DNA of 64,000 nt. Origin: Moniliella sp. 'wahieum'. Its lineage: Eukaryota. Of the stretch, positions 5,946 to 50,732 are shown piece after piece; within the stretch, counting starts at the first letter, position 1; each line of letters starts with the position of its first letter. The translations under genes and the position numbers were made by a program. Location: contig RSEE01000016.1 of assembly GCA_003971905.1 (NCBI GenBank), positions 434,001-498,000 on the forward strand, read 5' to 3'. The notes under the pieces were generated by a model, which saw nothing but the letters and a program-made list of their open reading frames with translations, had not been told where the DNA came from and did no database searches.

Positions 5946-5964
5946 GACGTTTCCAGAACATTTC
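5946..5964 (+). promoter_or_regulatory. Heat-shock-element-like array upstream of HSP90
   Basis: GACgtTTCcaGAAcaTTTc: alternating nGAAn/nTTCn pentamers (two perfect, two imperfect) about 270 bp upstream of the HSP90 ATG. Confidence 0.55.
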
Positions 5965-6158
5965 ACGCCCGCAGGCGGTCAACGTCAACGTACTTCGAAT
6001 AAATACATACTGGCCCCGTGCGGGCGCCCTGCGGTGGAACACCTTCGCCCAGGTTCCACTGCGGGGGCACAACGCCGCCGCTGCCCCCGTGCCCAAACTT
6101 CCCGCACCCAGCAGCGGCCCGGCCGGGGTGCGCACGCACACCGGCCTCCTGCGCAGCG

Positions 6159-6165
6159 TATAAAA
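6159..6165 (+). promoter_or_regulatory. TATA box of HSP90
   Basis: TATAAAA about 70 bp upstream of the ATG, followed by a pyrimidine-rich leader. Confidence 0.65.
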
Positions 6166-6231
6166 CCGAGCACGGGCTCCACCGCTTGCCTCCTCTTCCC
6201 CATCATTTCCTCCCTTTCCCCGTCGTCTCCC

Positions 6232-21896: not shown

Positions 21897-22079
21897 GCTG
21901 TCGGCGCGGGTTACGCTTCTTCTTGGAAAGGGGTGGAAAAACAGTATCGGCTCCGGAACGGAGGCCAGGCATTCAGCCGTGTTGGGTGGGGGTATAGGTG
22001 GGGAAAATATAAGTAGGGCTCAGGCGGGCAGACGAGAGAGGTAGTCTCCGCCTACTCAGAGGATAATGTGGGCTCAACC

Positions 22080-22244: not shown

Positions 22245-24392
22245 AGCCGCACGTGTAGTAGACACCACTGGCGCATTCCTCTGTTCTTCCTTACCCACCA
22301 CCTCTTCGCTCAACTCTTTGCTTCGTTCTCGCTCATATCTGCTTCTGGTATAGCTCTGCCTACCGTGTAGTACCTCGCTACACGATCATATGGATCAGGA
22401 ATGTGCAAAAAAGGAAACAACCCATCATTAACATCATTGGAGGCCTTTGTGGTTTTTGTTACCAAGAAAATGAATGCGATGCTGTGGGAGAGGGTATTAT
22501 ACTGATGACAAAAGAGAGAGAAGAGGAGAATGAAACCATTACGGTGGTGTATTATGCCCTTCGTACCATTGGGTCATTTCATCCTTTCTTAAACTACCTA
22601 GCTCAACACTAAGGATCAGATGGATCAGGACAATACGATGATATACAGTTTGATTCGGGATATAGCCTGGTCACCTCTTGCCATACATGATATATCCACT
22701 GCTCCTTCTCACTAACGCGTCTTGTCCCTTCGTGGGTCAACAGAAAAACTTGCATTACAGTCCTACATGCCATGTATTTGAAACGGATGCCCCACTATCG
22801 CACTCATAGAGACATTGATAACTCATCCACCCTTCCCACACTTGCGGGCTTCTAATCTTCTATAATGAAGTTTTCGCTATAGGACAGTGGAGGAATATCT
22901 GTTTGCTCTGGATCCCCCCATCAGCGCTAATCTTTTGTACTCAAAACATGAGAAATGTGCGTGGATAGCTTTCATGGAGGGAAAACAATGAAGAAGAAAC
23001 GGTCAAATCATACGCATATGTGTAAACTGTCGTCTCAGAGGGCGGTGGGGTGAGAGAGAAAGGAAGAAGATCAGTTGGCCGAGATCAGAGAGGGAATGGA
23101 TTCATTGGCTTTTTAATATTGCTGGACGATGAAGCAAGGGTTAGTTGGTGTTGGTGGTGTATGTAGATCAAAAGAGAAGAAGCTTGAAGTAGCAACTTAC
23201 AGCCGTTACAGGATATGACTGTGCATGTGTGGTGTGGGTTGTTTTGTCACATCTCTGTTGCCAGTGTCAGGCCTGAGGACCCCTTCAGTGTCGTCGGGGA
23301 CGACACAAAAGGTATGGTCCGGTATGGATTATTGTGGACGAGACGCGGGTTATGTGCGACCAAGACTGGCAACACGGTATCGAGCATTGGAAAAGGAACG
23401 TATACTCAGGAGTCTCTGGCATGGGAGAGATCGTTCATCGCCGACTGATCAATCTCGTTCATCGCTCTACACTCATGTCCATGTATATGAATACCACACG
23501 CTCATTCGTATCCGCCCGCGCGACATGCGGTTTGGAAAGGTGGAAGAGGGTCATACGAGTACCCCACGTTGGCTTTCTCATTGCGCTGGCTCGAACTGAC
23601 AGCAAGCACACCGCATGTCGATGATGAGCCAGCCTGTGGTATTGCAAGCGCAGCACATCTTTGTCCCCTTCTGACGGTGTGCAGATGCCATATGGAGACC
23701 GGCGGTGTGATGCTACCGAGGCAACATGTGATGTTCCGATCATCATCAGTGCATCAGTACGTTCAGTACATATCAGCACTCGTCTCAGATCTTGGGATGC
23801 CAGAATCTCAGATCTCAGGCACTCCGACGCAGGCACAGACGGGCACTGGCCCAGCCCATCGCCAGCCAGGCACACACCTGCACACACCCGTGCGTGGCGC
23901 GTGATGCATGATGCATTGCATGATGCCGCGTGAGCGTGATGCGATTCGTGGCGGCACGGCTGGGGCCGCACTGGGGCAGTATTGGCGGGTGGCGCGGCAT
24001 GTGCCGTGCATATTGCATGGGCACTGGAGCACAGTGTGGTTTAGCACTCTCCTGAGCATCTCCTGGGCAGCGCCTGGCAGGGCTGGGCACTGGCTGGGCG
24101 CTGACGCCCTGAGATCTGAAGGCTGTCAGAGCATCGAGTGGTGGCCGCATGGGTGCAGCCTGCGTGCAGCGGGCGCTCTGCGCCTGTGTCCGCTGGCTAG
24201 CCGCTGCCAGGGGCTGCCTCCGCCTTGGTACGTGGATATACGCTGGCTGCGTCGAGCAGCCGTTGATTAATGATTACAGCTTGCTTTGCCTTGGCCAAAG
24301 CGCCAAGCGCTAACCGCTCCCATCACCCCATCACAAAACGCCCTCCCCCGCGCTCTCCACCTCCTCCTCCTCCACCACCTCCGCTGCGCCCC

Positions 24393-27300
24393 ATGGCCGT
24401 CCCCCACCCCCCGCCTCCCCCGGCCGTGGTGACTTCAGCGGCACCGCAGCCGCCCCCCGGGTACCAACCGCTCCTAACCCGGCACTCCCTTCCTCGCCCC
24501 CCTCTCCTGCTGGCCCGCCGCTGTTCTCATCGGCCGCGTCTGTTGTGCCACCTCTGCCCGCGGTGTTCGATCCTCATGCTGCACCCCCGCCCCTGTTTGA
24601 CGGCGCCCCTGTCCCCAACACTGCTATGCCTATGCCCCTGTCGTCTGTTGTCTCGGCTCACCCCCCAGTCACACATCCACATGCCTCGCCCCTGTTGCCC
24701 TCCGCTCCGCCCGCTTTTGCAACACGTGTCCATCGTCCCACCGGCCCAGCCTCCATCGCTCCCCTGCCCCTGCCTGAGATGGTGGGATCCAATCACGTCG
24801 CACCCTGGGGCACCATCCTCGTTCTTCTCCCTGTCGAGATGCAACACGCCTTCTCCTCTGCCAATTCGTCCTCCCAGACACCTGCTTTGCTTTCAGTGGT
24901 GGACCAGGTCATTGCGCCGTTCGTCAACTTGGTCCGCGATCGCCTTCTTATTGCTGCCAAGCTGCACACCCTCCTGAGTCGCAACGCTACCTTGGACGTC
25001 ACTTCCGTTCCTGCAGCTTCCGTTGAACCAAAACTGGACGTGGGCACCGTCTTCTATGGGACACGCTCCAGCGATGCATCCCCCATGCCTTCCGGATTCG
25101 GTTCATCCGCGGATTCTTCAATATACTCCATTCCATCCGTACAGTCTATACCCTCCAATCTGCACCGCAAGCCTTGGAGTCACTGCGTCAAAGGGCGTTT
25201 CCTTCTGCCTCCACCCCTAAACTGTCTGAACCCGATTGGCTCCGTACGGACGCCCTTGATGCATTCTGTGACCAAGCCGCATTGGACTCGACAGGCACAC
25301 CGCTTGAGCCTTTGTTCTATTCCGGCATACCGTCACCGGAGGAGGAAGGATCGAGTGCTGTCTTGCACGAACTCTTGTCACTTGGACGGGCTGAAGCTCC
25401 GTCTGTTTCAGAAGAGAGGAAGGGTATTCTCCTGGCCGAAGCACTTGTGGCTGCCCTTGAACTTCTTCCTTCTCTTCAAACAGAGCCTACCTCTACCTTG
25501 CTTCATCCTTCCCATGCGCCCCTCTCTCCGGCTCCCTCACCAAGCCCATCTTCTGGTGTAGGTGGATCGGAATCGCGCAAACGCAAACGGGATGCCCCGG
25601 CAGCGTCAAACTTTCCCAGCACACCCACGTGCGTTTACCTCTTATCTTTCCTCCAACCCGTAGCCGGGACAACGGATTCAGCGTTCTCTTCTCTTCCATG
25701 TCTTTCCAACGAACGGAGCGTGAACGACAACCTGTGTTGGACTCAGGCCGCCGAACTGTTAGCAGGGCAGGCTGTCTTCCCTTGTACGGTTGTCCTTCGT
25801 AACGAAAAGGACAAGACCCATGCGGTCCATGGCTTGGATCCTGCCTCTTCTGCCGGACGATTGCATAATCTTCTCTGTGGCAGTTCAGAGGCCAGTTCAC
25901 GCACCCATTCGGATCCCATTCGCCTTTTCCCCACGGTTGCTCAAGTTGGTAGAGTCGCCTTGACGGGCCTCACAACCCGCAGCAAGACGATGGGCTCAGG
26001 GTGGGGGAAGAACTTGCCACCTTTACCGGCATCCCATTTGCTTTGGCCCAAGCACCCGCCCAAGTCGAAGGAAGATACACCTTTTTCCTCCCCTTCATTG
26101 GGGCATCGAGAATGTGCGCTTTTTGCCCTGCGCAGGATGCAGGAGTGGCAAGCGGGCCGTGTGCTGGTTTCGTTCCAGCTGCGGGATGCGTATCAGCAAG
26201 TGCCCTCCTACTTGGAGCACAATCAAAAGCTGGCAGCTCGTTCCGCGTCTTCTTCCCATCATCCACCGAGCCGCACTTTTCTTACACGCGATCCCGCCCC
26301 GGTTGCAGTGGCCACGTCTTCCAAACAGACCAATGCTCCTGCGAAAACGGTGCCTGTGGGTCCCAGCAATATTCGAGCGCAATCTGATCTACCGGACCCC
26401 AAGTTGGTCATTCTCGCGTTGCGACAATCAATGACCAATGGCATGGCGGGCGTGACCGGGGATACGGTGCAGGGGTTCCACAATCTGTTGCGGCAGCTCC
26501 TTACCCTGCAACGGGCTGCGTTGGCGCTGCACCTAGCCCAAAAGCTGTCAAAGGAGAAAAAGTACCCTCCGGCCAGCAACTTATCGAGCCGGAAGCAACC
26601 AACTTTGCTGCTATCGATACGGCCCAGGCCGCCCTGCTCACATTGCAGAAGAAGGTATACGGCACAGTGGGGGCGCTGGCGGAAGGACGGGTAGCCAAGG
26701 ACGCCGAAGACAACCCGCAAGGTCCGACAGCAGAAATGCGAAGGAAACAGTTGCTTGTCGAGCTGAATAAGGAGCTTATCGCCATTGACAGGGCCGCACG
26801 CGCTGCGGGGGTGACGCTGCACACATCGTCCCCCAACCATCCTCAGGTGAACGCGCCCCCTGCCCCGACCAGCACCGATCCTAGTCCGGCCCAACCTGCT
26901 ATTATTTCCCTCGTACCCCCCGCGCCTCATGGTAAGAGCAAGGCCTGGGAAAAGGTCACGGTGCGCGAAGTCGTGTACCGTGGTAACATCACTTGGTCGA
27001 CTCCCGACCCCAAGGCCAAAGACAAGGGTGTGCGCAAAGACGTTAGGACACATATTACTGCCACAGTAGCGCGGGAGGCGAACCGAGCTGATGTGTACGT
27101 GCTTCTCATCGTTTCCATTGGGCTCCAGGCCACTAACAATAACCGTTTCTTCAGCTTGCTACCCTGGCCACGATCGTTGGCCATCAGCTCCATCGACCCG
27201 GTCAATGTGCAGGCAGTGCAGCAGTATGCTCAGGCTCATTCCATCCCCGTTCTTGTCGTCACACCTACCCAGCCAGCTGGGTTAGGGGAGAAAGAGCTGA

Positions 27301-29043
27301 GCCTAGAGCAGAAGGACCACCTGCGCGCCAACGCCGAGGTGTACCACTCCTTGGCCCGCGGTCTTGCCTCCAAGCAGGCTTCTGCCTTCATCCGCCATGG
27401 CTCCCACCACCGCTCGGGCATCCTGCTTGTTCCTGTCGCTGCTCCCCTGCAGCGCAGTTGCCTGCCACTACGGCCCCTTCACTGCGCCTGATCGCGTTTA
27501 TCTTCAAAGAGGGAGTGCCCGCCTGTGTCACAGTGCCCCGCTCAACGTCTCTTCGGCAGGGGCAGCTACCAACGGCCCAGCCACCGCCTCAGGGGGAGTG
27601 GCAAGCTTGCCGTCCCGACAGCTCCTACCCACTCTGCTCCCACTAGCACCCACCCCCCTTCAACGTGGCCAGCAAGCACCTTTTCTCCTTCCCTTCGCCG
27701 CCCCGTCCCACAAATCCAATCCACCCGTTCTCCTACCCTACGGTACCCGTTGCTACCACTGCAGTTTCGACTGCGGCGCCTGTTGCTGCTGCTGCATCCA
27801 GTGGCCACTCTGATCTTCCCGCCGCCTTCCCACCTGCCCCCCGAGCGTCCCAAACTCCATCCTGGCCCCCCGCTGTACCTGCGGGCTTGCCTGTGCCGTA
27901 CACTAGTCCCTCGGTGCCGGCGGCGTCATGTGCAGGCCCGAGCGCAAGCCCAAGCACCATCCCAAACCTAACCGCTCGCCTGCTCGCGCAGCAACAAGTA
28001 GTGTACGACATCTTGCGATCCGCCAACCTGGACCCAACGCATCTTGTCCAAAGTGGCACGCTATTGCAGCACCTGGCCCACCTTGACCAGGCTACTCGTA
28101 CTCGGTTACTAGAGGCCTTAAAGACGTTGCGCCAACTTACGACGGAGGCCCAGGCGCAGCAGCAGGCCGGGCAAGCGCGCGCCCGCCCAAGCTGGTCAGG
28201 ATCATCTCCATGCGCCTCCCCAGCTTGTCCACCCGCCAACGCAAGCCCATCCCCATCCCCAGACTTACACTGATCAACCGCACTCGAACGCTCACGGTAC
28301 GCCAGCGCAAGCCAAGACTGAGGCTGAGATGCGAGCAGCTCAAGCTCAAGCTCAAGCTCAAGCACAGGCATGGGATCGGGATCGGGCACAAGCTCAGGCG
28401 CAAGCTCAGGCACAGGCACAGGCACAGGCGCAAGCACAGGAACAGGCACAGGCACAAGCCCAGTTTCCTTGGCAGGCTCAGCCAGCTCAACCGGACTCCC
28501 ATCCACAACCCGTCCCTGCAAGTGAGAACGCTGGGACGTTGACGATGCTGCAGCAGTACCTTCTCAACCCAGCAACAGCAACAGCAACAGCAACAACAAC
28601 AGCCTCAATCTCAATCTCAACCTCAGCCTCAACCTCAATTGCTACCTCAACTGTTCTTGCCGCAGCAGCAACATCAACCCCTGCAACCACAACCACCCCC
28701 GCTGCCACAGCATGACACGAGTGGGCTAAGCCTCCAACCCGGCGCTCTCACGCCGGCGCAAATCCAAGCCCTGCAGTGGCATTTTCTCCAGCAGGGACAG
28801 GGGGGCCCATTTCAAGCGTTGCAGGCTCAGCTGCAACGTCTGTCTGCCCCGGGGGGGTTGGGCGTGCCAACGTCCGGTTTGACCGGGGGTCCTGTACCAG
28901 CGCCAGTGCCTGTGCCAGCGCCGATGAGTCTGGGGCCAGGCCAAGAGGCAGGCCAAGAACAGGGACAAAGCCAGGTCCAGGCGGGGGAGCCGGATCCGCT
29001 GGCGCAACTCTACTCCCAGTTCTCCCTTCCTTACCGCCCCTGA
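24393..29043 (+). CDS. Large Pro/Gln-rich protein with Med25-like VWA and ACID/PTOV-like domains (putative Mediator subunit 25); frameshifted, at least one intron
   Basis: ATG at 24393; VWA-like segments WGTILVLLP..DVGTVFYG..GILLAEALVAALELL..CVYLLS..WTQAAELLAGQAVFPCTVVL; ACID-like VVYRGNITW..LPWPRSLAI..YHSLARGLASKQASAFIRH..GILLVP..RLIAFIF; in-frame intron 27095-27154 (GTACGT..CTAAC..CAG); (QA)n/polyQ tail ending LYSQFSLPYRP*. Confidence 0.62.
28330..28700 (+). repeat. Coding low-complexity (QA)n and polyQ/QP repeats
   Basis: GCTCAA/GCACAG hexamer arrays and CAACAG arrays. Confidence 0.85.
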
Positions 29044-29230
29044 CCAAAACAAAGAAGTGCCCAGGCGCCACAGCGCCACAGCGGCAAGCACTATGGGAGG
29101 TCCCACCTGTCTGTTTTGCCACCATCTGCATATTCAACTCCAAGTTCAAGGTTGCTTTGGTTGGCTCCTTTATCTATGATCCGTTTGCGTACCGGACGGG
29201 TGGACATTGTGCCTGGTCCATCTGTGAAAT

Positions 29231-30676
29231 TTATTTGTACCCTAGTTCTGGGCTGACGAGGTTGATGAGGCCGAGGTGAGAGTAGTAGGGTGAGGAGGAG
29301 GATTGTCGACTGGTGCCGAGAGGTCTTTGGAGGGAGACGGAGTAGTAGCAGTAGAGTGGCGGAGGTGGCAGAGGGGACTGGGGGATGGGTCCTTGGAGGG
29401 GATGGTGTCCTTGGAGGGGATGGTGTCCTTGGAGGGGATGGTGTCCTTGAGGGAGAGGTGTCAATGGAGGTAGACGGAGTGGTAGTGGTAGAGGTGGGAG
29501 AGGGGGAGGGAGAGTCTTTGCGTTCGATAGGGCGAGAGCTAACGTCATACGGCTCAAACGGGAAGAAGAGGCGATTTTTCGGCCAGCGCGGGGTGTCGGG
29601 GTCGGTGGCGACTGCACATGTACCGCCGCGCGAGGCAAAGCGGACCAAGCGCTGGTCCGGATCGAACGCGCGCGCGAGCGGGTACTCATCATACACCCAG
29701 ACGGCGTCGAGTCATGCTCATGCTTGACCAGCAAACTGACGCGCACCGCGGGGAACGAAGGCATGCCCATCCCACCCCCCACAACGTCCAAGTCCGAGAG
29801 CTGACGTGGGGCGAGGATAGGGCCGAGTGTGTTGGTCATCAGCGCTTGCGTGCTAAAATTCTTGGTTACGGCACCAACGGTAAGATGGGGCATGTAGATG
29901 TCCCTGGGTACCGGTGCTGGCATGGCACCCATATCGACCAGCAAAGTTTGGATGCGATGCTGAAGCAGCAAGAGGCGCCGAGTACCTTCCTCGCCTTGGA
30001 CAAGTCGGTAATCTGGCACATTCGGAGGAAGAGAGAGACTGAGGAAGAAGGCTATCCTCTGCCAAGCCAGGTGGCGGGGTGAACTTTCCCGTCCGTTTTA
30101 ATTCCTCCGCTTTCCGGATGGCTTGGCGGTGTCGGGCCTTGTCTCGCCCGACGATGCGGGTTAGGTCCCAGAGCTTCCGCTCAGGAACGGGAGTAGGTCG
30201 GAGGTAAAAGAGGAACTTGTTGGGCGTGACGAAAAAGTCGGAAACAGGAAAGTTGAGACTGAACGCACCACCGGGAAGGTGTGGGTCAACTTGCGCAGGG
30301 CGGACGAAATGTGCTTGACATAGTTGATGAGGAGGAGGAACGTAGTCTTGGGGGCCGCGGAGGAAAAAGTGGTCGGTTTCGGGGATGGTGTCAGCGCTTT
30401 CGAGTGCAAAAGGTGGTGCATTGATCATCCGTCCTTGTCGACGGTACCTGGCCTTAACCTTCCCTTCTTTGTCCCACTGCATGCCATGATCACGCGGGAT
30501 GGGGCTCTTCAGCATAAACGGCGATATGAGCGGGATGTGCGGAAGAAGCGTGTCGTGGTGAGGATCATGCAGGCGGCGGACTCGCTGCAGCTGCTTGTAC
30601 ATAGCATGAGAAGCAGGACTGTGGGCTCGATCATGAGCGCCACCATGGCTTTCAGTCTTCCCCTGAGAGCAGACAT
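29231..30676 (-). CDS. 2H-phosphoesterase superfamily protein (LigT/2'-5' RNA ligase-like); frameshifted
   Basis: ATG at 30676 (MSALRGRLKAMVALMIEP); QLQRVRRLHDPHHDTLLPHIPLISPF (first His motif) and YMPHLTVG (second HxT motif); C-terminal RTPSPP repeats. Confidence 0.65.
29385..29455. repeat. 18-bp tandem repeat (RTPSPP)n
   Basis: GATGGTGTCCTTGGAGGG, 3-4 copies. Confidence 0.85.
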
Positions 30677-34849: not shown

Positions 34850-37800
34850 TTAAGTCGTCGTGTCGGACATAGGAGATGGAGAGAAACCGATCGCCATGTC
34901 CAAGGGGAGAGAGGCAATCGGAGACGACGGACGCATACGTGAGGGGCGGCTATGCGCGGGAGCGGGCGGGAGGAAGCCGTCCAGGGGATCTAGGGACTCG
35001 ATTCGAATTAAACGGACTGGGGACGAGGTGAGCATGATCATGGGTGAAGACGCATCCGATACCTGACCAATGACGACGAAATGAGATACCTGAATTCCCT
35101 CGTCCTAGTCTAACTTGTCCTTGACGGCCTCGGAGACTGTCCACGTCATATCCCCCGGTGGTGAAGAGAGATCGGAGGAGGAGAGGGGGGGGGCGCAGGG
35201 GTGAGAGCTCTTCCGGGTTGTTCCAGATCGGAGAGGAAGACGTGTCGCTGAACGGGTCGATGATGCAGCAAGGGACGGATCCACGTTGTACTGGGGTGGT
35301 CCCCACAATGGACTCTTCCCGTCACCTCCCAACTGCTTTCATTCCAAGAGGGCCATCTTCAAGGGACCAGCTCGCACAAGGGGTTCAGCCTCAAGAGGCT
35401 CGTCCACACTCGCTTCCTCTCCCGAAGGGCTCCTCAAGTGACTCCACAAGGGATTCCTCCTCAAGAGGCCTCCACAAGGCAGTCCTCTTCAAGATGATGT
35501 TCCTCGTGGAATCCTCTTCGCAAGGGGTTCTTCAGGAGGCACCTCCTGAGCAGGCACTTCTGAACAGGCACCTCTGAACAGGCACATCCTGAACAGGCAC
35601 CTCCTGAACAGGCACCTCCCGAACAGGCCTCTGAACAGGCACATCCTGAACAGGCACCTCCTGAACAGGCACCTCCTGAACAGGCACGCCCTGAGCAGGG
35701 AACTCCTCAAGAGGCCCCTTATCAGCCGGCTCCTCAATAAGCGTCTCCTCAAGAGGCCCTTGCTGAGTGGGCTCTTCAATAAGCGTCACCGTAATACGCT
35801 CATCCGGAGCAGGCCTCCATCGGTTTCTCTTCAAGAGGCCCCTCCCGAGCAGGCTCCTCCATAGGATGCTCATCCTGAGAAGGCACCTCCTTAGCAGGCA
35901 CCTCCTCAGCAGGCATCTCCACAACAGGCTGCGCCTTAGCGGGCTCCTGTTCTAGAGGCTCAGCACGAGGCTCTTGCCCAAGGGGATTCTCTCGCGGTTC
36001 CCCCTGATCAAGATCACTCAAACGGGACTGATCTAGAGGTACCTGCGGAATAGGCGTCGCCTCACCCGGCTCACTTTGGCGAGACTCCACCTGCCTTAAA
36101 ATCTCCGCAGGAGGCTCCGACTTGCGATGCTCCTCCTCCTGTCGACACTCTTCAACATGAGCCTCCTCAGCATGAACGCCCCGATGAAGATGTTCTTCCT
36201 CCAGTGGCGTGCCTACGCGCGGCTCACCCATATGTGGGCTTTCCTCCAGCGCTTGATTCACGGGTGACTTTGCCTCCATTGGGCCGGTAGCGCCCGAACC
36301 TTTGGCTAATGGGTCCGTCAAAGTCAACGAGGCCGAGGAGGCGAAGGACGCACCCTGTGGAGTTAGCACCTCCTCGGTAGCAGAGAGTTCCTCGCCTTGG
36401 TAGTGGGAGGCAGGCACTGCAAGCATGGCAGTGGTTTGCCCTGCCTCAGATGAGACAGTGTCTTTCGTCGGCTCCATAGGAGGGTGGGAGGGAGAGGCAG
36501 CTGGGGGTTCCAATGACGGTACGACCCAGTCCTCCTTCTCAACTGAAGGATCCACAGTGGCCGGCGTGGTTGTTGGAAGGATTAGCCCCCCGTCCGCTGT
36601 TTTCACGTCCTCCATCTGGCCGGCAGATGGTTCGGGCCCGGACGCGGGTCTGGCTGCAAATGGTGCAAGGGGCGATGATCCCGTCTGATTGTTGGCAGCG
36701 GCATCCCCTGAGGAAGTGGAGACCATAGGCAGAGGAAATGGACCTGCCATTTCGGTGCTCACCCCTGGGATTGAGGGGGAAGCAGGGGCAGCGGTCACGT
36801 CCTTCAACTCACTGGAGGGATGACCTGGCTCGGCGATAGGGAGAGTTGTAACCAGCCAAGAGGAAAGGTCGGTATTTAATTCAGCGGCAACGGGGACGGG
36901 CGCATCCTCTGTTCCTTCCATGGCAGAGACGGTGCGGGGTGTTCAGGGAGGCACATATTCAGTTGTGGATGCGTATGTGCCTCTGCCACTACGTTGGCCT
37001 CCAGTGTGGGGGGTGCTGGTCGTGCTTCAGCACTCATCTGGTCGGTGGAATGTATCCTGAGCATCGGTGATTCCGTTTTGTCGGCGGCAGGGGCATCGTC
37101 CTCCCGTGGTACCATGGTGGGCTGGGTAGTGGTAGTACTAGACCCAGTATGACGTCGGGAAGCATCGTCTTCAGCCACCTTGGCCACCGACATCACACTT
37201 TCATGGTCCTTGGGCGCCAGAACATCTGGGCTTTTGTCTTCTCCATCCAACTCGTGAGGTCTGGACCCGAGCCCATTCATGTCAGGGGTGGGCCACACCC
37301 AGATGTTGGATCTGAAAGAAGGGGTTAGTGGATTCTCCGGACTTCCGGAAGGCACCTTATACGTACGAGCCATCCAGTAGCCTAGGCTCCGTGAATGTGA
37401 CCGGCTTCGTAGATGGTGGGACATGGGGTAGGTCCCAGCCGAGTCGCTGGGCAAGGTAGCTAACGATTGTATCAGGGTCACCGAGAAGCATGACATCCGA
37501 CTGAAAGTGGGGCACATGTGTCTTGCTGATCATAATAACCGGGACCCGATGCGGCATGAGTGCGACCAAGTCGGCAGCGAGCGTCGAGGCGTTCAGTGGA
37601 GAGCCTACAATAATAATCAGATCTGCTAGTGGACGGTCCGCCTCGACTAAACCTTGCAGTTGGCTCGACACGCTCTCTCCGACAAATGCAATGTCAGGCT
37701 GATAAAGGTCAGAAAAGTTCCAAAGGAGAAGACCAAAGTAGGCGTACCTTGAGTACCCCCAAGCCAGGCTGGGCATCATTTTCTTGCGCAAAGACCCAGT

Positions 37801-38937
37801 GCACCTCACCATTGGGTCCTGCACGTTTTTTGCGTCGTTGATTGATGGCGCGTTCCTCGCAGGTAGAGCATTGGGGTACTTCCCTGGCCATGATGGCTTC
37901 CTGTATCTGCGCCTTATCGACCCGCGCTTTACATATTGGATCGGTACAGGTGGCCGTAGCGATGCTGCCGTGACATTGGAATAAGTGCGTGATGCCCGCC
38001 GATTGTTCGAGCATGTCGATGTTCTCAGTGTAATTGCGCAGCAGCCGGCCCCGGTCTTGCAGAAGTTTGACAAACTGATGCGAGACCGAAGGTTGAACAG
38101 TCGAAGAAAAAGTGTATGTCTACACCAAGTCAGTATTCTCCTGTATGTAAATGTCACCAATCGACAGGGGTGTGCACGTACGCAGCATCGTAGAAAATGC
38201 TCGGGTCGGCAAGAAAGCGGCCGATGTCAAACATGCCATCCGGGATTTGGACATCAGAGGTTCCCTCGAATGAAGTATAAATGCCGTTTTGGGAGCGAAG
38301 GTCGAGGTTCCCGCCAGGCGCACTGATTTCCGCTCCAGTCAAGACAAGGATGTTGTGGGCCCCAAGGATCAAGTTGACCGCATCATCAGGGGTGCTGTAT
38401 TGGTCTAAACGGGGACGTTGTTGCAATGCTTGATCCGCTTTATTCAACGGCACATCAGCTTGTCTCATGCGCTCTGCGAGAATGCTCACTAATTGGTCTC
38501 TGGGCAGGTCACGATTCACAAAGTATTCAGCCTGGGGAAAGCGTCAGTTTAATGCGCTTATGCTTTACACAAACCACAAGAGCATCACATACTTTTTCAA
38601 GCCCTTTGGCGGCGAGAAACAAGGGAATCTAGGGAACAAAATCGAGTGTCAGCTATCTGACGCCCCTGCGCCTCGTTGCCACAGGCACTAACGAACATCC
38701 AAATCGCTTTCATAACGATTTAACCAACGCTCCAGCCGTAGTTTTGTAGATCCGTTTGGAGTTGCTCAAGACGATCAGGGGGAAACGCCTGGTGAGCTAG
38801 CACAGCATTTAGGGGGTTAAGAACGCGTTCCATTCCATCTCCCAGCGCGGGGTGTCAGGGGGGTCAAGTGGTAACGAACCGGCCTGCTTGAGCTGCTCAG
38901 CCCGCATGTCGGACTCTAATGCTGGAAGACTGGACAT
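34850..38937 (-). CDS. Sir2/Hst1-type sirtuin with degenerate NAD-binding motifs and a long acidic/Pro-rich repeat tail
   Basis: RPRLDQYSTPDDAVNLILGAHNILVLTGAEIS..DLRSQNGIY, MFDIGRFLADPSIFY, LLRNYTENIDMLE, QCHGSIATATC..C..CSTC, LKPDIAFVGE, DLIIIVGSPL, DVMLLGDPD; introns at about 38629-38696, 38532-38592, 38120-38181, 37699-37747 and 37312-37366; the last intron splices the domain in frame to the tail. Confidence 0.85.
35530..35945 (-). repeat. Coding tandem repeats: 15-bp (E/D)VPVQ units plus longer EEPxxxGPLEE units in the sirtuin tail
   Basis: CCTGAACAGGCAC(C/A)T repeated roughly ten times at 35536-35700; CTCAAGAGGCCC blocks recurring at 35706-35845. Confidence 0.9.
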
Positions 38938-39994: not shown

Positions 39995-41210
39995 ATGTTC
40001 GCTCGTGTTGCTGCTGCCCGTGCCCTGCAGGCTACCTCGGCCGCCCCTGCGGTGCGTGGCTTCCACGCCTCCGCCCAGGCTGCCACGCTGCGTGAGCTGG
40101 AGCAGCGGATCAAGTCTGTCGGCAACATTGAGAAGATCACCAAGTCGATGAAGATGATTGCCTCGACCCAGCTCAACAAGGCCCAGCGGCATGGAGGCTG
40201 CTAAGGCATACGGCAATGCCAACCAGGGTGAGTGCCTGTTCTGTGATGCTCTGATTGGTCCCAATCCGATGGCTTGTTGGTAGTTTTCAGGGTGGTCTGC
40301 ATGAGGCTTCTTTGGAAACACCATCTTTGCTTGCCGCCGTGCCAAATCCCTTCCACACCCAGTGAACCTACGGCCCTGCTCTTGTCCCCACTTCAGGCTT
40401 GTGGGGCGCGTTGGCCCGAACGGGAATGGGGACGCGTCCAGGAGGTGATGGGACCAGAAGGCGGGACACGGTTGGGACTTGCTCCGCTCCCGGCTAAATG
40501 GACCATCCATCCTTCTTATCCCGATTTGTGCTGACCCTTTACACCAGAGATCTTCAAGCAGACTGGTGCCAAGGCCCCGGAGGCGGCAAGCAGCTGATTG
40601 TCGTTGTGTCGTCGGACAAGGGTCTCTGCGGTGGTATTCACTCGGCGGTTACGAAGAAGACGCGGCAAGAGTACTCTAACGCGCCCGAGGGTGACAAGCC
40701 CAGATCATTGTGGTCGGTGACAAGTCCAAGGCGCAGCTGCACCGTGCTCTTCCAGAGGCTCTGGTGCTCTCTTTCAGCGGGTTTGGTAAGGAGAACGCCA
40801 CGTTCGCCGACGCTGCCGCTATCACCGACCTGATCTTTGCTCAAGGTCTTGAGTTTGACTCGATCAAGATTGTGTACAACAAGTACATGTCTGCCATCTC
40901 GTTCGAGTCGGTTGCAGACAGTGTGTACGCCGAGAAGGTCCTTGCTGAGGCCCCTGAGTTCAACGTGTACGAGGCCGAGGAGGAATATGTCTCGGATCTT
41001 GCCCAGTTCTCCATTTGCAACGCCATCTTTGCTGCTCTGGCTGAGGGCCACGCATCAGAGATCAACTCCAAGCGGAACGCTATGGACAACGCCTCCAAGA
41101 ACGCCGGCGAAATGATCACCAGCCTCAACATGGCATACAACCGTGGTCGCCAGGCTGCCATTACCAACGAGCTTGTCGAGATTATCACGGGTGCATCGGC
41201 AATGGAGTAA
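39995..41210 (+). CDS. ATP3: Mitochondrial F1 ATP synthase gamma subunit; one 320-nt intron, small frameshifts
   Basis: Presequence MFARVAAARALQA; ATLRELEQRIKSVGNIEKITKSMKMIAS; SSDKGLCGGIHS; EGHASEINSKRNAMDNASKNAGEMI..YNRGRQAAITNELVEIITGASA; intron 40228-40547 (GTGAGT..GCTGAC..CAG). Confidence 0.97.
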
Positions 41211-41931: not shown

Positions 41932-43858
41932 TCAATTAGCCCTTGGCAGCGGAGCGACGCGACGTGGATCCCGACGGGTCGGGCGGGGGAAGGCTTGAGA
42001 GAAGGTGAGTCTTCTACTAGCTCGGCTTGGGTAGGAATGCGTGCGGGGGCGGGGGCGAGAGATTGGGCGGGACAGATTGTGGGGTCTGCGGCGCGGGACT
42101 GTGGTCTGGGTTCGGAGAGTGCCGTTGGGCATGGCCCAGGCAAGCACGAGTGCCGGAAGGAGCACGGCAGTGGCGAGGATGCAGGTGAGGTACATGACGC
42201 GTACCCAGGCCTGGATGATCCCCGTCCGCTCGGGTGAGCCAAGCGGATAGGAAAGCGCGGTGGAGAGGGAGCCGTAGATTTTGCGGCGCTGCTCAGCATC
42301 AAGCTGAGGAAGCAGTTCGGCCAGGTGCCGGGGCAGACGGTCGGACACAATCAACCCAGCCAGCGCCGAGCCCAACGCCGCCCCCACCTCGGTCACCAGC
42401 AGTTGGAACGCCGTCACCGTTGCCACATCCCGAGGAGCAGCATAGACTTGCGCCGCGACCTGCATCGTGATGGCCACCGCGCCGCCTCCGACGCCTTGCA
42501 GCAGTTGGCACAAGACCAGGAGGGGAGTTTGGTCTTCATTATTACGGAAGCGTACCATCAAGCTTACCCCCACAATCCGCACCACCACGCCGAGGATCAT
42601 GAGCGTTCGGAAACGTCGGGTGGTCGACATGACCCATCCGACCATCAGACCAACAAGAGTGGAGGTGATGTTCTGGGTGGTGGAGAAGTAGGCAGTGCGG
42701 GTCTGATTCCATCCCTTGACAACCTGAATAAAGGCCGATAGGTAGGTGAAGGTGAGGGTGAACGAGGCAAAGTCAACCAGTCCGAGGAGGCAAACATAGA
42801 TAGTTTGTCGGCGGAGTGCATGGATGGGCACGATGGGAGTCTGGGTGCGGGTCTGCCAGTAGAGACACAGCGCAAGAGTGTTCCCCCAGCCAGCGCGTAC
42901 TGGGCATTGTCCTTGGATGAAAGTTGGTCCCGAAGTGTCAAAGGTAATAGCAATAGGAGCCAGCCAACGGCAAACAGGCACAAACCGAAAAAGTCCAGCG
43001 AAGCACCAAGACGTCTCATTTTCTTCCCCCATGTCAAAGCATGAGGAAGATAGGAGGCGGAGTGCCGACCTCTGATCCCGTGGGCGTGAACTGAGATGAA
43101 GCGCGGGGGCGCATGAGGGGCGTGGTAGCAGAGAAAGGAGACGGAGGTTGGGCGGATGAAGCTGGGTCATCCGGAGCAGGCACCCGGCGCCGGATTTTGC
43201 CTGGTCAATAGAGAGGACGATGAGCAGCGGCAAGGCGGCCAGGGGTACAAGCACTGCGTACGCGCCAATCCCTACTCGCCAACTGGCGTTTCGAACGACC
43301 GAGGTCAGCGAGTGGGCCAGCAAGAGCAAAGTTGATCAGGTATGGCAGATTGATTGCCCCAGCACCAGGCCGCGATATTGAGGCGAAGTCGTGTCTGCAA
43401 TGATGATGCTTTGAAGAACTTGTATTCCCGTCGTTCCGGCAGACTGGATGACGACGCCCAGCAAGAAGCTCCGAAATGTGCCTGCTGTGGCGACAAGGCT
43501 GTATCCTCCGAGTAGAACGCGAGTGCGAGTGCCAAGGCCTCGGCTCGACCAAACACATCACTTACCACGGCAATGGGGGGCTTGGCCACAGCATAGACCA
43601 TCTGCTGGGCAATGCTGACAGTGGAAAAGGAGGCGAGCGCACCAAAATCCGAGAGACCCCAGTTGTAGTACAGATAGGCTGTATTGGACTCGAGCGAAGT
43701 GAAAAAACAAACGCAGAAGATGGCGCCGTACATGACGGCGAGGCGGCGGCGGCGGGCCCGCGCTGCGCGCATCGCCGCTCCACAACAGGGCTCGGGCGCG
43801 GACCAGACGCTGGAGGTACGGGCAAGATAACCTGAGGAGGGCGGATGATAGGTGGCAT
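41932..43858 (-). CDS. MFS siderophore-iron transporter family protein (SIT/ARN/MirB-like); frameshifted
   Basis: FFTSLESNT..AVAKPPIAVVSDVFGRAEA, IIIADTTS, WRVGIG, LDFFGLCLFAVG, QLLQGVGGG, KIYGSLSTALSYPLGSPERTGIIQAW. Confidence 0.88.
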
Positions 43859-44017
43859 TGTATTGGCGGGTGGAGGGTGTTGGCTAGGCAGTAAAGGCTC
43901 TTGCTCTGTCCCAGATCCTGTGCCGTTAAGCCTCCGTTGTCAGAGCAAGGACCCGATACAGCAAGGGGCAACGTGAGATGAGTAGGCGATGGAAGGGGTG
44001 GGTGAGCGATGGGGCAG

Positions 44018-44772: not shown

Positions 44773-45116
44773 ATGCCGCGCATTGACTTTCGTGGTATGT
44801 CCTCCGCCTGCCTGTGCCGCGTGCCTGTGCAGGCGCGACTGACCCCCGCCAGTGACCGGCAAAGTGCAGGGCGTCTTTTTCCGTCGCCACACCATCACCA
44901 CCGCCCAGCAACTCGGCCTGCGCGGCTGGGTGCGCAACGATCCCGATGGCGCGGTCGTCGGCGAGGCGAGCGGGACGCAGGCCACGATGGACGCCTTCGT
45001 ATCCTTCTTGCACCAGGGCCCGCCAGCAGCCGGTGGACAAGGTCACCATTGTCCCGTCCCAGCTAGCCGACGAGGCGCTGCCGCTGCCCTTTGCGCTCCG
45101 CAAGCACCTCGCCTAA
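44773..45116 (+). CDS. Acylphosphatase
   Basis: MPRIDFR, intron 44795-44852 (GTATGT..ACTGAC..CAG), then VTGKVQGVFFR..LGLRGWVRN..DGAVVGEA..LHQGPPAA; one frameshift near the 3' end. Confidence 0.92.
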
Positions 45117-45672: not shown

Positions 45673-45778
45673 GAGTTACAATCCTCTTGACGCTCAGCCC
45701 TGAGCCTTCCACTCTTACACTCTTCGGTCCTCCGCTGCCGGCCCTATCCACAAGCGCTTGCTCGAACTGCGTAAGCTA

Positions 45779-48700
45779 ATGGCAAGCATCATGAGCTCTC
45801 AGACTCAGGAGTCTTGGTTCAACTCCTCAACCCCTACTTCACCAACTGCCGGAGCAGAAGAGAGCACCACTCCCGTCGGAGTTGACCACGCCTCCCCGCC
45901 GCTGACACCATCGCGTGAATCTACCCCTACACCTCAACCCACCCCCGTGGGCCCCGACAACACCGCGAACGACGTCGCCACCCTCGCCGACCGCATTCGC
46001 AACATGTTCAAATTGTTTCCCGAACACATCACCCTCAAACAGCTACAGGACACTGGTATCAAGCTTGGGTACAGCGAAAAGACGACCACAGAAGCCATTG
46101 TCATGTTATCATGTGAGAATCCACCCAATGCTAGCAAGAACGAAGGTGCCTTATCGTCAACTCCGGCCGTCGACGACAACCCGTGGGCTTTGACTCCCGA
46201 CAAGCTCCTCCGTAGTGCCACTCGCAGCAACGTGCCGTACCACGAGCGTTTCCACAACAACAGCTCGTTTTGGTTATGGACCCGGATCTTCCTCCCTCGT
46301 ATCCAGATTATCCCTGGAGCGCGTGAGCATCTGGAACAGGGCAAGGCCCTGGACGGGTATAACGCAGAACTGGACGCTCACTTGGCCAACATTCTACTCC
46401 CGTGGATAGACTCCGACGTCGTCCAGCAGATCACCGGCGATGGCACGCCGGCTCTAGGGTCTGCATACTATCATGCTCTGCGTGATTTGTACGGCACCGT
46501 TTCAGACACTGAGATCTGTGATATCCTCATAAAGGTTCTCACTCTCAAAATGGGCACCAAGTCGGGCCGCCAATACCTGAATGAGTTCACTGTGGCGGTA
46601 ACCCAGTACGAGATGACGTCCAAGTCCAAGCTGGACGAGATTGGTCTAGCACAGATGCTACGGAAAGGCGTTACTGATCAGGGGTGGTTGCACCTCCATC
46701 GTAACAGCAGCTACGCCGAATTGCGCCGAGCAGTGAGCGAACTCAAAGGCTCCAACTACGGCAGTACCTCCAGTTCAAGCCCAGCTCCCTCCAGTACGGC
46801 CCCTTCGGAAGCCACGTCGCACAGCCAAACAAGCAGTACGGTGACAGGCCGCGGACGAGGCCGAGGTGGCAGCGGGTACAGAGGAAGTCACCGTGGTGGC
46901 CAACGTGGCGGCCACTTTAGCCGGCCGGCTACGACAGCCCAGACCACCTCATCTGCCCATGCAGTAACCCCTATGGCAGCCACTACACCACCCAAGCCAG
47001 CCAACCTCCCTGCGCAACACGATTCAGGTGCGAGACCATCCGTATTCAATGAACGAAGTGCGTTTATCAATCTTCGTCCACACCGCGAGCCCATAGCAGT
47101 GGCAAACGGACAGATCGCATACACTGAAGGCATTGGCACCATCTCTATGTACATTCAAACCCAGAACGGAGCCCCTATCCGCATCCACCTACCCGGCAGC
47201 TTGTACTGCCCCACCTTCCCGACCAACCTGCTCAGCGCTTACCATCTATCTATCGCAGGCATTGGCAGCTGGATCCCTCCAGGTGGCCATGGTCTCTATC
47301 TCGGACGACACGGCGAACCTTTTCGTCTCGCCGCCGACTCAAGCTATTCCCTTACTCTGGCGCCCAATACGACAGCCACAGCCAACAGCGCCACTTCGCT
47401 ACTCAACCTTGATGCAACCCTGGTCAAGGTGAAAAACGCCCACATCCGATGGAATCATGCACCTCTAGATCAACTTTCATCCCTCACGTCGGATGACCCA
47501 GCATTCGAACGGGTCAACAGTGGCGACATCGCTTTAGTCCGGTCCTCGTGGCACTGTGCACCATGCGCATTAAGCAGAGCCACTGCCCCACCCCACGCCA
47601 CGACTGGACGCCCAATCCGAACCATTCGCCCTTTCTCTCTCCTCCACCTCGACGTCCTTGACATATCCCGCCAAGGCGGCGGGGTCATACTTACGCCCTT
47701 ATCATTGTCGACGACTTTACGCGGTATACCTGGACGCTACCCCTGGTGTCCAAGGGTGATGCCACAGCCGAACTTCAAGCCTTCATCCGGCGCGAGCATC
47801 GCCAACATCCCGACCGCCCCCTTCAGACGGTCCGCTCTGACAATGCGCCTGAACTCACCACCGCAATGGACGAGTTTTACTGCGAGCTGGGAGTAGTGAG
47901 CGAGCGCACCAATCCTGGCGAAAGTGCGTCCAATGGGGTCGCCGAACGCGCCATAAGATCGATTACGGATCGCGCTCGACTCATGGTAATCGCCAACAGA
48001 TTGACTCCCGACGAGTGGTGGGAACACAGCTTGTTGGCGGCCACATATGCACACAACCAGTCGCCGCCGAAAGCACTGGGTGGGGACAGCCGATTTGTCC
48101 GGTACCATGGCTTCAAACCCTCCCTTCGCATGCGCGGTTTTGGCACTCTTGCCTACCTGCACCTATTGCCCAACCAACGCGAGGGCGGCAAACTTGGTCC
48201 GCGGGCCGTCCCAGCAATGTTGGTGGGTTACGGGCACGGCCGCGGTTCGAAGGGGTGGCTCTTTGCCATCCACCAGGACGACGGCCAAGTTGGATTCCGT
48301 TGGAAAAAGCCGTCCACCTGGACGCATGTCCCGTACACCACCGAATATCCCACGCACTTTCATCTGGACCCCCTTGTCCCTGCTGGTGGCGGAGAGGTGC
48401 GGGGGGGCGGAGAAATGGGTGCTGGTGGGAAGTCAGACAGCTCCCCACCCCGGCGTGTGCGTTTTGCGATAGATGAACTGACCCGCGATACTAATGGTAA
48501 GAAAGACAATGCCCCCCATGGAAAAAGAAAATTAAAAGAACGAAAAACAGAGGCACATCGCCCGGCTCAAGCCAACGAAAATGAGAATTCAGAGCCTGGC
48601 CCCACTCCCACCAACTCCAACCCCCCACATGTATCCCCCCAACCTGTTGCATCTGACCCCGCAGGCATGGCACAACGCCAGGCAAAGCAAGCCGAAGAAA

Positions 48701-50732
48701 ATGAAACTATCACAGAAGATGCCGTTGACACTGGCCACCAAGTCCTGCTTTCCCCTCCCTCTTCCACTTCCCCTTCCTCTCCCGCCCTATCCCCCTCCCC
48801 TCTTCCCCCACCGACACGCTCGCCCCCGTGACCGTGCCCCTGACCGATACAGCCGTCCCCGCACTCGTGCGTCGCAATCCCGTTCGCCAAGCGCGTATCA
48901 ACGCTCCACCCCTCGACCTGTCCATTCCAGCCAACGACAATTTGCGCGATGGCACCTTTTCCCTGCTCGTCAACAAGGCCCCTAGCATCTTTGGCAACCC
49001 GGCCGCCCTCTCCGCCCTAGGAATGCAGGCTTTGGTGAGTATTTTCGGACCAGCGCCGGACACATCCATGCTACCTGCTTCGGAGCCAAGCTCGCCCCCC
49101 ATTGCACTCGCAATCGAATCCGCGGCAAGTGACACCGAGGTCATACTGACCACCGATGGGGTCCCGGTGGCCCCCAAGAACATCAAGAAGTTGGTGGGTC
49201 ACCCTGCCTTTGATGGCGTACTCGAGGCAATGCGCCTCGAGCTTCGGCGTTTTGACGAGCGTGACGTGAAGGAAGTTGTACCCATCCCCCCAGGGATCAA
49301 ACCCCTTCCCGGCATGTGGGTCATAGGTACTAAGACGGATGCGGATGCTAACTTCCTCAAGTACCGTGCCCGCTACGTTGTGGGAGGGCACCGGCAAGTT
49401 CCTGGCACATGGGCGAAATCTTTTGCTCCTGCCGTTCGTACTGCTGCCGTCAACACGCTAATTGCGTTGGCCGAAGCTGATGGCCTCCACTTATTTTCTG
49501 CCGATGTGGAAGCTGCCTACCTCTATGCCGATATCAACGAGCTCGTCTATGTTCGACCACCCCCCTTCTTCCCAGAAGCGCCCGGTCATTGCTGGAGACT
49601 CAAGAAAAGTCTCTATGGCCTGCACCAGAGCGGGGCCAACTTTGGAGATTGGCTCCGCACTTTCCTTTGCGACCGACTCCACTTCACTAGCCTAAAATCA
49701 GAGCCTTGCCTGTTCATACGTCGCACCGAACCTCTTGGCCTGATCCTAATCGCCGTCCACACTGACGACTTTTTGGTCGCGTGTCGGTCCCAAGAAGCGT
49801 ATGATGAATTCTTAGTGGAATTAAGGCGCAGCATCCAAATTAAGTCCAACGGCCCCCTACGTTTCCATCTCGGCTGCCAATACGACCGTATCGATGGACG
49901 ACTGTACATCAGCCAACCCAAATTCATCGCTGAGACGCTTGCCGCGCATGACATATCACCTCACCGGCCCCGCTACCTTCCAATCGGCCACCAACTTCCG
50001 CCTCCCAAGCGACCCGAACACGAAAAGCGTGCCACTCGAGACGAGCACCGTGCCTACCGTTCTATTGTCGGATCCAGCTTGTGGGCGGCTCGTATGTCCC
50101 GGCCTGATGCCCTCTTTGCGGCTACCTTTTTAGCGCGGTTTATGGACGACCCGTCCGCCGCCCACCGACGCGCAGCGGAGGACCTATTACGTTTCTTCGC
50201 CGGTACGTCTGACTACTCTTTGTGCCTCACACCCAACCGATCTCGCCCTCTACTCGAGCTGCACACCGATGCCTCCTTTGCATCAGACAAGAGCAACTCT
50301 CACTCCGTTTCGGGCCATGTTGTTTTTGTTTTCGGTGTGCCTGTATCCTGGGGCTCCAAGTCCCAAAATCAAGGTGTGAGCAACACAGCAGCATCTGAAT
50401 ACCTAGCCATGGGAGATGGCCTTCGAGATGCTCTATTCATTCGCAACATACTGTTTGAACTTGGTGTCTGCAAGGCTAATCACCCGATTGAGCTCTTTGT
50501 TGACAACACCGCTGCCAAAGCGTTGGCCGAAAAGCTCGGCAGCCTAGGCAAAATACGGGAGATTGACGTCTCGTACCACGAGGTGCGGGAACGCATCCAC
50601 CGAGGCGAAATTAAAGTCCACTACACTCCAGGTGCACACCATCTCCCTGACTGGTTCACCAAACCTCTTTCTCTTCCCAAGATCATTTCTGCGCGTAACA
50701 ATTTCGATTTGGCTTCTCTTTCTTCGCGCTGA
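45779..50732 (+). CDS. Gag-Pol polyprotein of copia B, a few frameshifts
   Basis: ATG at 45779; RGG-rich Gag end; protease HDSGA; integrase AHIRWNH..CAPC, LHLDVL..IVDDFTRY..RSDNAPEL..SNGVAERAIR; GKLGPRA; RT YRARYVVGG, DVEAAYL, LKKSLYGLHQSG, VHTDD; RNase H HTDASFASD..SVSG..AASEYLA..VDN..LPDWFTKPL. Confidence 0.93.

Follow-up and report, generated by a model that had tools for sequence, protein, structure and literature searches.

A gene of the sirtuin family with a strongly altered active site is described here from a stretch of 64,000 nucleotides of Moniliella sp. 'wahieum' (contig RSEE01000016.1, positions 434,001 to 498,000), referred to throughout as the window. The gene lies on the minus strand, and direct translation places its catalytic core at 38531-37367. 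We read it as a real class Ia gene in a deep-branching fungus of the Ustilaginomycotina, which would have been kept by selection as a protein while its active-site cleft was remodeled; we regard the chances of this reading as about even. The product is probably no longer a normal deacetylase enzyme, as judged from the motifs that in sirtuins bind nicotinamide adenine dinucleotide (NAD+) and the substrate.

Altered and retained motifs of the catalytic core

The hallmark motifs of the core are read from the minus strand as follows.

38336-38292, minus strand: GAEISAPGGNLDLRS, the canonical form of which is GAGISVSCGIPDFRS
38032-38012, minus strand: YTENIDM, an altered TQNID motif
37975-37961, minus strand: CHGSI, with CHG kept (CHGS at 37975-37964)
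37948-37931, minus strand: CTDPIC, zinc cysteines kept
37870-37859, minus strand: CSTC, zinc cysteines kept
37689-37675, minus strand: AFVGE, an altered FGE motif
37605-37579, minus strand: GSPLNASTL, altered GTS and LKVxPV motifs
37530-37522, minus strand: ISK, an altered IN motif
37485-37471, minus strand: LGDPD, an altered LGxCD motif

The motifs that define class membership, as listed in an excerpt of a published account (PMC4056409), are thus retained in part. In place of GAGISxxxGIPxxR/GIPD the protein reads GAEISAPGGNLDLR, in which the second G is replaced by E, I by N, P by L and F by L, and S, D and R are kept. TQNID is TENID, with N, I and D kept; FGE is VGE; GTS, which should be followed five residues on by PVA or PVS, is GSP followed by TLA; and (V/I)N is IS. 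PxxxH with T or S after the P is present as PSVSH in exon 4, the HG motif has the CHG form that marks class Ia (CHGS), and both cysteine pairs of the zinc module are found.

The first-pass annotation of this DNA had listed the substitutions GAEIS, GNLDLRS, TENID, FVGE, GSPL and ISK, and all of them were found where it had placed them, on the minus strand. It had also taken CHGS to be intact, along with the four cysteines that bind zinc (CTDPIC and CSTC), and all four cysteine columns are indeed kept. Its view that the changes are codon-level substitutions, not insertions or deletions (indels), holds as well: the altered motifs are read from whole codons (GGA GCG GAA; ACT GAG AAC; TTT GTC GGA; GGC TCT CCA; ATC AGC), and direct translation of the other two frames gives no canonical motif at these places. 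The change of LGxCD to LGDPD, also on its list, is present but carries little weight, as that column varies among the relatives (A, C or S in tblastn alignments). Hypermutation resembling repeat-induced point mutation was considered as a source of the changes and was rejected, the motif codons differing from the canonical ones by mixed transitions and transversions when compared by eye.

Conservation against homologs

The extent of the alteration was measured against 151 retrieved proteins, not chosen by motif, which were aligned to the homolog profile and 111 of which cover the full core. Among these 111, 82 of the 257 core columns are at least 90% conserved. The sirtuin of the window keeps 60 of the 82, compared with a median of 81 and a maximum of 82 for the homologs; the sole lower score (51/82) belongs to P0040, a protein model without the N-terminal part. 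The second Gly of GAG is G in 109/111 homologs and E here, the Gln of TQNID is Q in 111/111 and E here, and the Phe of DFR is F in 110/111 and L here. Likewise, the Phe of FGE (F in 110/111) is V, the Ser of GTS (S in 110/111) is P, the Pro of PVS/PVA (P in 111/111) is T, and the Asn of IN (N in 108/111) is S. At nine key residues the sirtuin deviates six times; besides the incomplete P0040, five full-core homologs deviate once each, and several of these single deviations resemble gene-model faults. On these alignments, the alteration of the motifs is far beyond chance and statistically exceptional.

The 22 changed conserved columns are spread over three exons. When six cleft segments were defined (GAGISxxxGIPDFRS, TQNIDT, CHGSF, KPDIxFFGExL, GTSLKVxPV and IN), 17 of 42 conserved columns inside them were changed and 5 of 40 elsewhere (odds ratio 4.8, Fisher p=0.006). 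Four of the five changes outside the cleft are mild (L>V, P>S, E>Q and V>I), and the fifth is F>A. The losses concentrate in the motifs of the NAD and substrate cleft.

Residue roles and the proposed function

The roles of individual residues have been described for SIRT2. In the part of that work available (PMC3603925), A85, R97, N286 and E288 are given as adenosine-binding residues, Q167 and H187 as ribose-binding residues, and S88, H149, F96, N168, I169 and D170 as nicotinamide-binding residues; G86 and C324 are adenosine contacts in its docked, simulated model. The same source reports lower activity for the Q167A and H187A mutants. These residues were mapped onto the protein of the window by motif spacing. 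The changed equivalents are G86 (to E), F96 (to L), Q167 (to E), N286 (to S) and C324 (to P), together with the Ser of GTS (to P), and the kept equivalents are A85, S88, R97, H149, N168, I169, D170 and H187. By this mapping, the half of the pocket that holds ADP (adenosine diphosphate)-ribose and pyrophosphate appears to be rewritten, and the nicotinamide pocket and the catalytic His appear to remain.

On the ADP-ribose/pyrophosphate side, the proposed remodeling comprises the second Gly of GAG (to Glu), the Gln of TQNID (to Glu), the Ser of GTS (to Pro), the Asn of IN (to Ser) and three residues of the GIPDF loop. Judging from the roles of the motifs, the two new carboxylates and the proline at the pyrophosphate/ribose site should greatly weaken or abolish NAD+ binding, and Glu in place of the GAG glycine and of the TQNID glutamine would repel the pyrophosphate. 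Retained are the four zinc cysteines, the catalytic His, the Arg of DFR and the residues of the nicotinamide pocket, namely the Ser of GAGIS, the Asn, Ile and Asp of TQNID and the His of PxxxH. The substrate side may be remodeled too: the Phe of FGE (to Val) and the residues of LKVxPV (now LNAsTL), which we take to line the acyl-lysine channel, are changed, so its walls would be altered. The suggestion of the first-pass annotation that the protein may be an acyl-lysine reader is weakened accordingly, because these substrate-cleft motifs (FGE, and LKVxPV after GTS) have changed along with those for NAD+; this applies at least to a simple acetyl-lysine reader. A protein without normal deacetylase turnover would most likely serve chromatin complexes as a subunit for binding or scaffolding, for which it would use the fold, the zinc module and the N- and C-terminal Sir2 motifs that it has retained.

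Family, nearest relatives and placement

That the gene belongs to the Sir2 family, as the first-pass annotation had it, was borne out by Pfam, by profile scores and by SIRT1 and Sir2 as the closest solved relatives. Exon 4 matches the Pfam family SIR2 (PF02146) with 80.7 bits (E 1.6e-22; cut-off 24), and exon 3 matches positions 1-50 of the domain with 21.9 bits (E 1.9e-4), which is below the cut-off. Exon 5 alone gave no Pfam match at E<=0.01; it is 44% identical to the homolog P0002 over 94 residues. Against a profile built from 105 homologs, the whole core reaches 307-315 bits. An exhaustive search with the central exon among 1.84 billion representatives gave 2503 matches at E<=0.001, none of them at E<=1e-30. 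Among the ten best of these that were named, four are Sir2 proteins of Thecaphora frezii, Moesziomyces and two Malassezia species. When longer proteins were searched by word index with the central exon, a single match came up (Cantharellus, 48%). Metagenomes were scanned as well, with 108 pattern matches for exon 4 and 596 for exon 5, none of which encodes a relative.

The best central-exon matches, and the closest known system, are the Sir2 proteins of Ustilaginomycotina: that of T. frezii (KAN0061606.1, here P0003), those of Moesziomyces (GAC72814.1/ETS61173.1, the P0005 cluster), that of Malassezia psittaci (WFD41846.1, here P0009) and UMAG_00963 of U. maydis, named in an excerpt of PMC10126416. 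They share with the protein of the window the same order of an N-terminal FPPDR helix region, a core with the zinc module and a C-terminal NSHxWxF motif, but they are canonical at every hallmark motif, unlike the protein of the window. Its core is 44-46% identical to the nearest Ustilaginomycotina Sir2 proteins, which are 65-71% identical to one another. The closest solved structures to exons 3 and 5 are those of human SIRT1 and yeast Sir2 (5btr, 4zzh, 4i5i, 2hjh and 4iao; E 1.5e-8 and 2.1e-14), with the same fold elements and zinc cysteines; however, SIRT1 reads GAGVSVSCGIPDFRS, FFGE, GSSLKV, INR and LGDCD, and the protein of the window differs at each. Because both the best library matches and the solved relatives are Sir2/SIRT1, the gene is classified from its sequence as a sirtuin of the Sir2/Hst1/SIRT1 class (class Ia) of a Ustilaginomycotina-like fungus.

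This placement agrees with those of Hsp90 and the ATP synthase gamma subunit encoded in the same window. The best match of Hsp90 is 93% identical, and those of Tilletiaria and Malassezia are 83-85% identical; from Hsp90, therefore, the organism would belong to a deep branch of the smut-related fungi that has been little sampled. In a tree of 111 sequences, from which P0040 was left out, the sirtuin of the window has the longest terminal branch (1.62), and the support for its neighbors is 0.19-0.76. No second sirtuin was found within the window, where tblastn with P0003 finds this locus only. In U. maydis, five sirtuins, one for each fungal subfamily, are reported in the excerpt cited above (PMC10126416). 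In Moesziomyces aphidis and M. antarcticus T-34, Sir2 is found on a different contig from the ATP synthase gamma gene (ATP3), so there is no conserved Sir2 synteny, and at such a distance synteny is uninformative as a test of orthology.

Gene model and exon-intron structure

The model of the sirtuin gene spans from an ATG at 38833 (or 38937) to a stop at 36876, and possibly beyond. The extent of 37400-38420 first given for it was therefore in the right place, but the gene reaches well past both ends. The spliced model has six exons separated by short introns of fungal type.

Exon 1, 38833-38729, minus strand: from ATG 38833 (MERVLNPLNAVLAHQAFPPDRLEQLQTDLQNYGWS); N-terminal helical region of Sir2-type proteins
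Intron 1, 38728-38629, minus strand: GTTGGT..TAG, with a CTGAC branch-like site
Exon 2, 38628-38593, minus strand: 36 nucleotides, IPLFLAAKGLEK, phase 0 on both sides
Intron 2, 38592-38532, minus strand: GTATGT..CAG, with a CTGAC branch-like site
Exon 3, 38531-38182, minus strand: opens the catalytic core and carries GAEISAPGGNLDLRS (38336-38292); its end, at a consensus donor, is in phase 2
Intron 3, 38181-38120, minus strand: GTACGT...CTGAC...TAG, 62 nucleotides; a weak alternative donor, GTGCAC, lies 4 nucleotides downstream at 38177
Exon 4, 38119-37748, minus strand: PSVSH, YTENIDM, CHGSI and the zinc cysteines of CTDPIC and CSTC
Intron 4, 37747-37699, minus strand: GT..AG type
Exon 5, 37698-37367, minus strand: second half of the Rossmann fold; AFVGE, GSPLNASTL, ISK and LGDPD
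Intron 5, 37366-37312, minus strand: GTACGT..CTAAC..CAG
Exon 6, 37311-36876, minus strand: C-terminal region, starting with (S)SNIWVWPTPD; stop TAA at 36878-36876 as assembled

All five introns are of the GT..AG type, 49-100 nucleotides long, with a CTGAC or CTAAC (CTRAY) site 14-24 nucleotides before the acceptor. Exon 1 (DGMERVLNP..AFPPDRLEQL) aligns with P0003 (DAQERFLDQ..LFPPDRVEEM) in a weak tblastn high-scoring segment pair (E 2.2), and the start of exon 6, (S)SNIWVWPTPD, matches the NSH(V/A/F)WLF(E/Q)GAE motif in the C-termini of P0002, P0003, P0005 and P0009. An intron of 36 nucleotides upstream of AFPPDR was also considered and was ruled out, the frame being unbroken from ATG 38833.

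Two further open frames overlap the ends of the model.

Upstream open reading frame (ORF), 38937-38809, minus strand: 42 codons, MSSLPALESDMRAEQ... (MSSLPALESD...); starts 104 nucleotides upstream of the modeled start and overlaps it out of frame
Overlapping open frame, 36942-35800, minus strand: 380 residues, acidic, rich in Glu, Pro and Ala with short repeats; overlaps the end of exon 6 and the stop in another frame

The upstream ORF could be a regulatory one or could be the true N-terminus displaced by an indel of one nucleotide; runs of six C (38863-38858) and four C (38852-38849) lie near it. When it was compared with the acidic N-termini of the homologs, shuffling gave p 0.56 (P0003), 0.73 (P0005) and a marginal 0.014 (P0009). 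The frame of 380 residues, in which a Pfam scan found no family, may be a disordered C-terminal continuation of the sirtuin if one base is missing, or a separate gene. A run of four C at 36939-36936 lies beside its overlap with exon 6.

The frame break at the start of exon 4

The exon 3/4 junction bears most directly on whether the gene is intact, and the two features concerned are given here.

T5 run, 38111-38107, minus strand: start of exon 4; probable site of a deletion of one nucleotide
ATP3 (mitochondrial ATP synthase gamma), 39995-41210, plus strand: divergent neighbor, located by tblastn with P0292 and P0294

Exon 3 ends in phase 2 at 38181, and exon 4 is in frame as assembled only from phase 0. 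As assembled, the frame is kept only through the weak GTGCAC donor at 38177, which is without the +5 G of the gene's five donors. With the strong donor and an unspecified residue at the T5 run, the junction reads FYDAAHTLFXSTVQPSVSH and can be laid gaplessly along FYSFAHRIFPSNFRPSPSH of P0003, and this model scores 315.3 bits against the homolog profile versus 306.9 bits for the weak-donor model. One base is therefore most likely missing from the T5 run, be it through an assembly fault or in the organism's own DNA. The first-pass annotation had taken both the intron set and the spliced reading frame to be preserved; the introns are kept, but the exon 3/4 junction is broken as assembled unless the weak donor is used.

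A comparable break was found in ATP3, an essential single-copy gene 60-66% identical to its Ustilaginomycotina orthologs. Its frame switches within 26 nucleotides (40677-40704), a stretch that could not hold an intron; the switch falls at a CCC run (40699-40701) across which the relatives read on uninterrupted. One missing C in a homopolymer would explain it, and deletions of single bases from homopolymers within genes are evidently present in the assembly. Because the same kind of break occurs in this essential neighbor, the break at T5 is likely, though unproven, to be an assembly error rather than a real deletion. The sirtuin coding sequence contains 24 runs of at least four identical bases; Hsp90, which is unbroken, has 7, and ATP3 has 4, its one break lying in a run of three. 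Since the sirtuin has so many more of them, one break in it is as expected of such an assembly.

Signs of maintenance or decay

In the assembled frames, no in-frame stop occurs in 562 codons. Neutral drift that changes 26% of the codons, equal to the loss at conserved columns, would be expected to produce 7.2 nonsense codons (P(0)=7e-4), and neutral divergence matching the 12% loss outside the cleft would produce 3.1 (P(0)=0.045). The N-terminal FPPDR, recovered in the weak segment pair, and the C-terminal WxF motif (SNIWVWP versus NSHxWLF) are kept across the introns. The marks expected of a processed or decaying pseudogene, namely stops, lost splice signals and an even loss of residues, were not found.

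Evolutionary rates were compared in Tajima relative-rate tests with an Agaricomycotina outgroup, in which changes unique to the protein of the window are set against changes unique to the relative. The sirtuin core gave 57:20 (P0003), 52:20 (P0005) and 46:24 (P0009). In the same lineage, Hsp90 gave 57:31 versus Thecaphora and 44:33 to 48:54 versus the others, and ATP3 gave 27:13. The sirtuin rate is thus only about 1.4-1.5 times the lineage baseline set by Hsp90 and ATP3, which is far from the rate of a conserved domain that has been freed. Because the frames are open, the signals of all five introns are intact and the acceleration is moderate, the gene model points to long maintenance and not to free decay. 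The same signs fit selection during most of the period of change, in line with the maintained gene supposed in the first-pass annotation. The gene may also be, as that annotation proposed, a paralog with lost or changed NAD-dependent activity; a loss of NAD+ binding would follow from the roles of the motifs.

Weighing the rival explanations

Several points weigh against a maintained gene with a remodeled cleft. The lineage is fast overall, which accounts for part of the divergence. The homolog set consists of the 150 best matches to the central exon and is therefore skewed to canonical enzymes, and the cleft segments of the enrichment test were drawn after the data had been seen. No ortholog with the same changes was found, the full-length matches among the best 150 of the 2503 being all at most 57% identical. 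The G+C content at third codon positions (0.57) is close to that of the window (0.58), compared with 0.82 for Hsp90 and 0.70 for ATP3, and the codon bias is without a sign of strong expression. Finally, with splicing at the consensus donor (GTACGT, 38181) the assembled exon 4 does not stay in frame, and if the T5 deletion is real, the gene is now dead.

The last of these points leads to the view that the gene is a recently inactivated pseudogene, in which constraint was relaxed after the enzymatic role was lost and a real deletion of one nucleotide then followed at T5, perhaps with others at the C runs near the ends. We consider this unlikely. It would account for the broken frame at 38111-38107 with the consensus donor, and two more possible frame switches, at the runs of four C at 38852-38849 and 36939-36936, would fit it, as would the unremarkable third-position composition, the richness of the window in Copia-type retroelements and a locus without the conserved Sir2 synteny, as seen from the separate contigs of Sir2 and ATP3 in Moesziomyces. 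However, no stop interrupts the 562 codons and all five introns have intact signals, the essential ATP3 has a like homopolymer break, and with 24 homopolymer runs in the sirtuin coding sequence one to three assembly breaks are no excess. The N-terminal break has no significant homology support, and the uneven spread of the changes at conserved sites runs counter to what free decay predicts.

It may also be proposed that the protein is still an enzyme, a divergent sirtuin acting on NAD+ or a related cofactor without the usual ADP/pyrophosphate contacts, in which the acyl channel, widened by the changes of Phe to Val and Val to Ala, might accommodate another kind of acyl group. The signs of maintenance would be the same as for a remodeled, non-catalytic protein. 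The equivalents of S88, H149, N168, I169, D170, H187 and R97 are kept, and the changes fall mainly on contacts to adenosine, ribose and pyrophosphate as assigned in the excerpt of PMC3603925. Against this stand the near-invariance of the second Gly of GAG (109/111 homologs) and the invariance of the Gln of TQNID (111/111), the lower activity of SIRT2 Q167A reported in that excerpt (PMC3603925), and the loss of the Phe of DFR as well. Glu at both sites would moreover put negative charge beside the pyrophosphate. To our knowledge, no sirtuin cofactor other than NAD+ is on record, which also counts against an enzyme of this kind, and we judge it to be rather improbable.

A sequence artifact, in which the altered motifs are consensus errors and the true gene is canonical, would be in keeping with at least one homopolymer indel in an essential gene (ATP3). 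Nevertheless, the motif changes are whole-codon base substitutions with no canonical motif in the other frames, 22 conserved columns are changed over three exons, and Hsp90 in the same window is unbroken over 2064 nucleotides at 80-85% identity to its relatives; such an artifact is very hard to credit. Of these readings, the maintained gene with a remodeled cleft has the most support. We further propose, tentatively and with more doubt than confidence, that a class Ia sirtuin was long kept after the ADP-ribose half of its pocket was rebuilt, and that it may represent either the first natural pseudo-sirtuin, serving as a scaffold or sensor and possibly being the only Sir2/Hst1-type protein of its lineage, or a user of a cofactor other than NAD+.

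Other features of the window

Besides the sirtuin and ATP3, the window carries one further gene used above.

Hsp90, 5917-8316, plus strand: intron-free gene

Two Copia-type retroelements (17311-22019, minus strand, and 45704-50732, plus strand) were found with RVT_2, integrase core and Pol beta-barrel domains. In both, the polyprotein is divided among ORFs that overlap and differ in frame. The second is in only three long pieces, of 730, 389 and 667 residues, and could be a young copy with assembly indels. At 24314-29279 on the plus strand, about ten overlapping ORFs of 150-555 residues lie in shifting frames, with no Pfam family in the three that were scanned; this chain may represent either one long gene that indels have interrupted or non-coding sequence rich in GC. 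A transporter of the MFS type (Pfam MFS_1; 41932-43883, minus strand) is split over two overlapping frames, and beside it a short ORF at 44843-45100 on the plus strand (VQGVFFRRHT...GWVRN) appears acylphosphatase-like by eye, as a candidate only.

Analogies and significance

Sirtuins are usually regarded as obligate NAD+-dependent enzymes, and the link that they make between metabolism and chromatin rests on NAD+. No described sirtuin pseudoenzyme or inactive sirtuin was found in the open-access literature, nor was a paper there on the G262A mutant of the GAG glycine of yeast Sir2, or usable information on the contact residues of Sir2Tm. The class IIa histone deacetylases offer a likeness: these are deacetylases with a substituted active-site residue and unclear activity that are said, in an excerpt of PMC12383505, to act in co-repressor complexes. 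Their fold, however, is zinc-dependent and unrelated, and in them one residue is replaced (Tyr/His), whereas here a dinucleotide pocket is remodeled at several motifs. Sir3 of budding-yeast silencing is a non-enzymatic paralog of Orc1, a chromatin-binding scaffold derived from a nucleotide-binding enzyme; as Sir3 belongs to a different protein family from this sirtuin, the likeness is conceptual only. A deacetylase-independent role of Sir2 was left open in the available part of the study of the U. maydis sirtuins (PMC10126416).

If the gene is broken instead, it would represent ordinary gene loss in a fast-evolving lineage. If it is a naturally kept member of the Sir2/SIRT1 class without the NAD+ contacts, it would amount to a natural separation-of-function allele, and it could show the non-catalytic roles of the Sir2 fold, such as partner binding, histone-tail binding and competition with active sirtuins.

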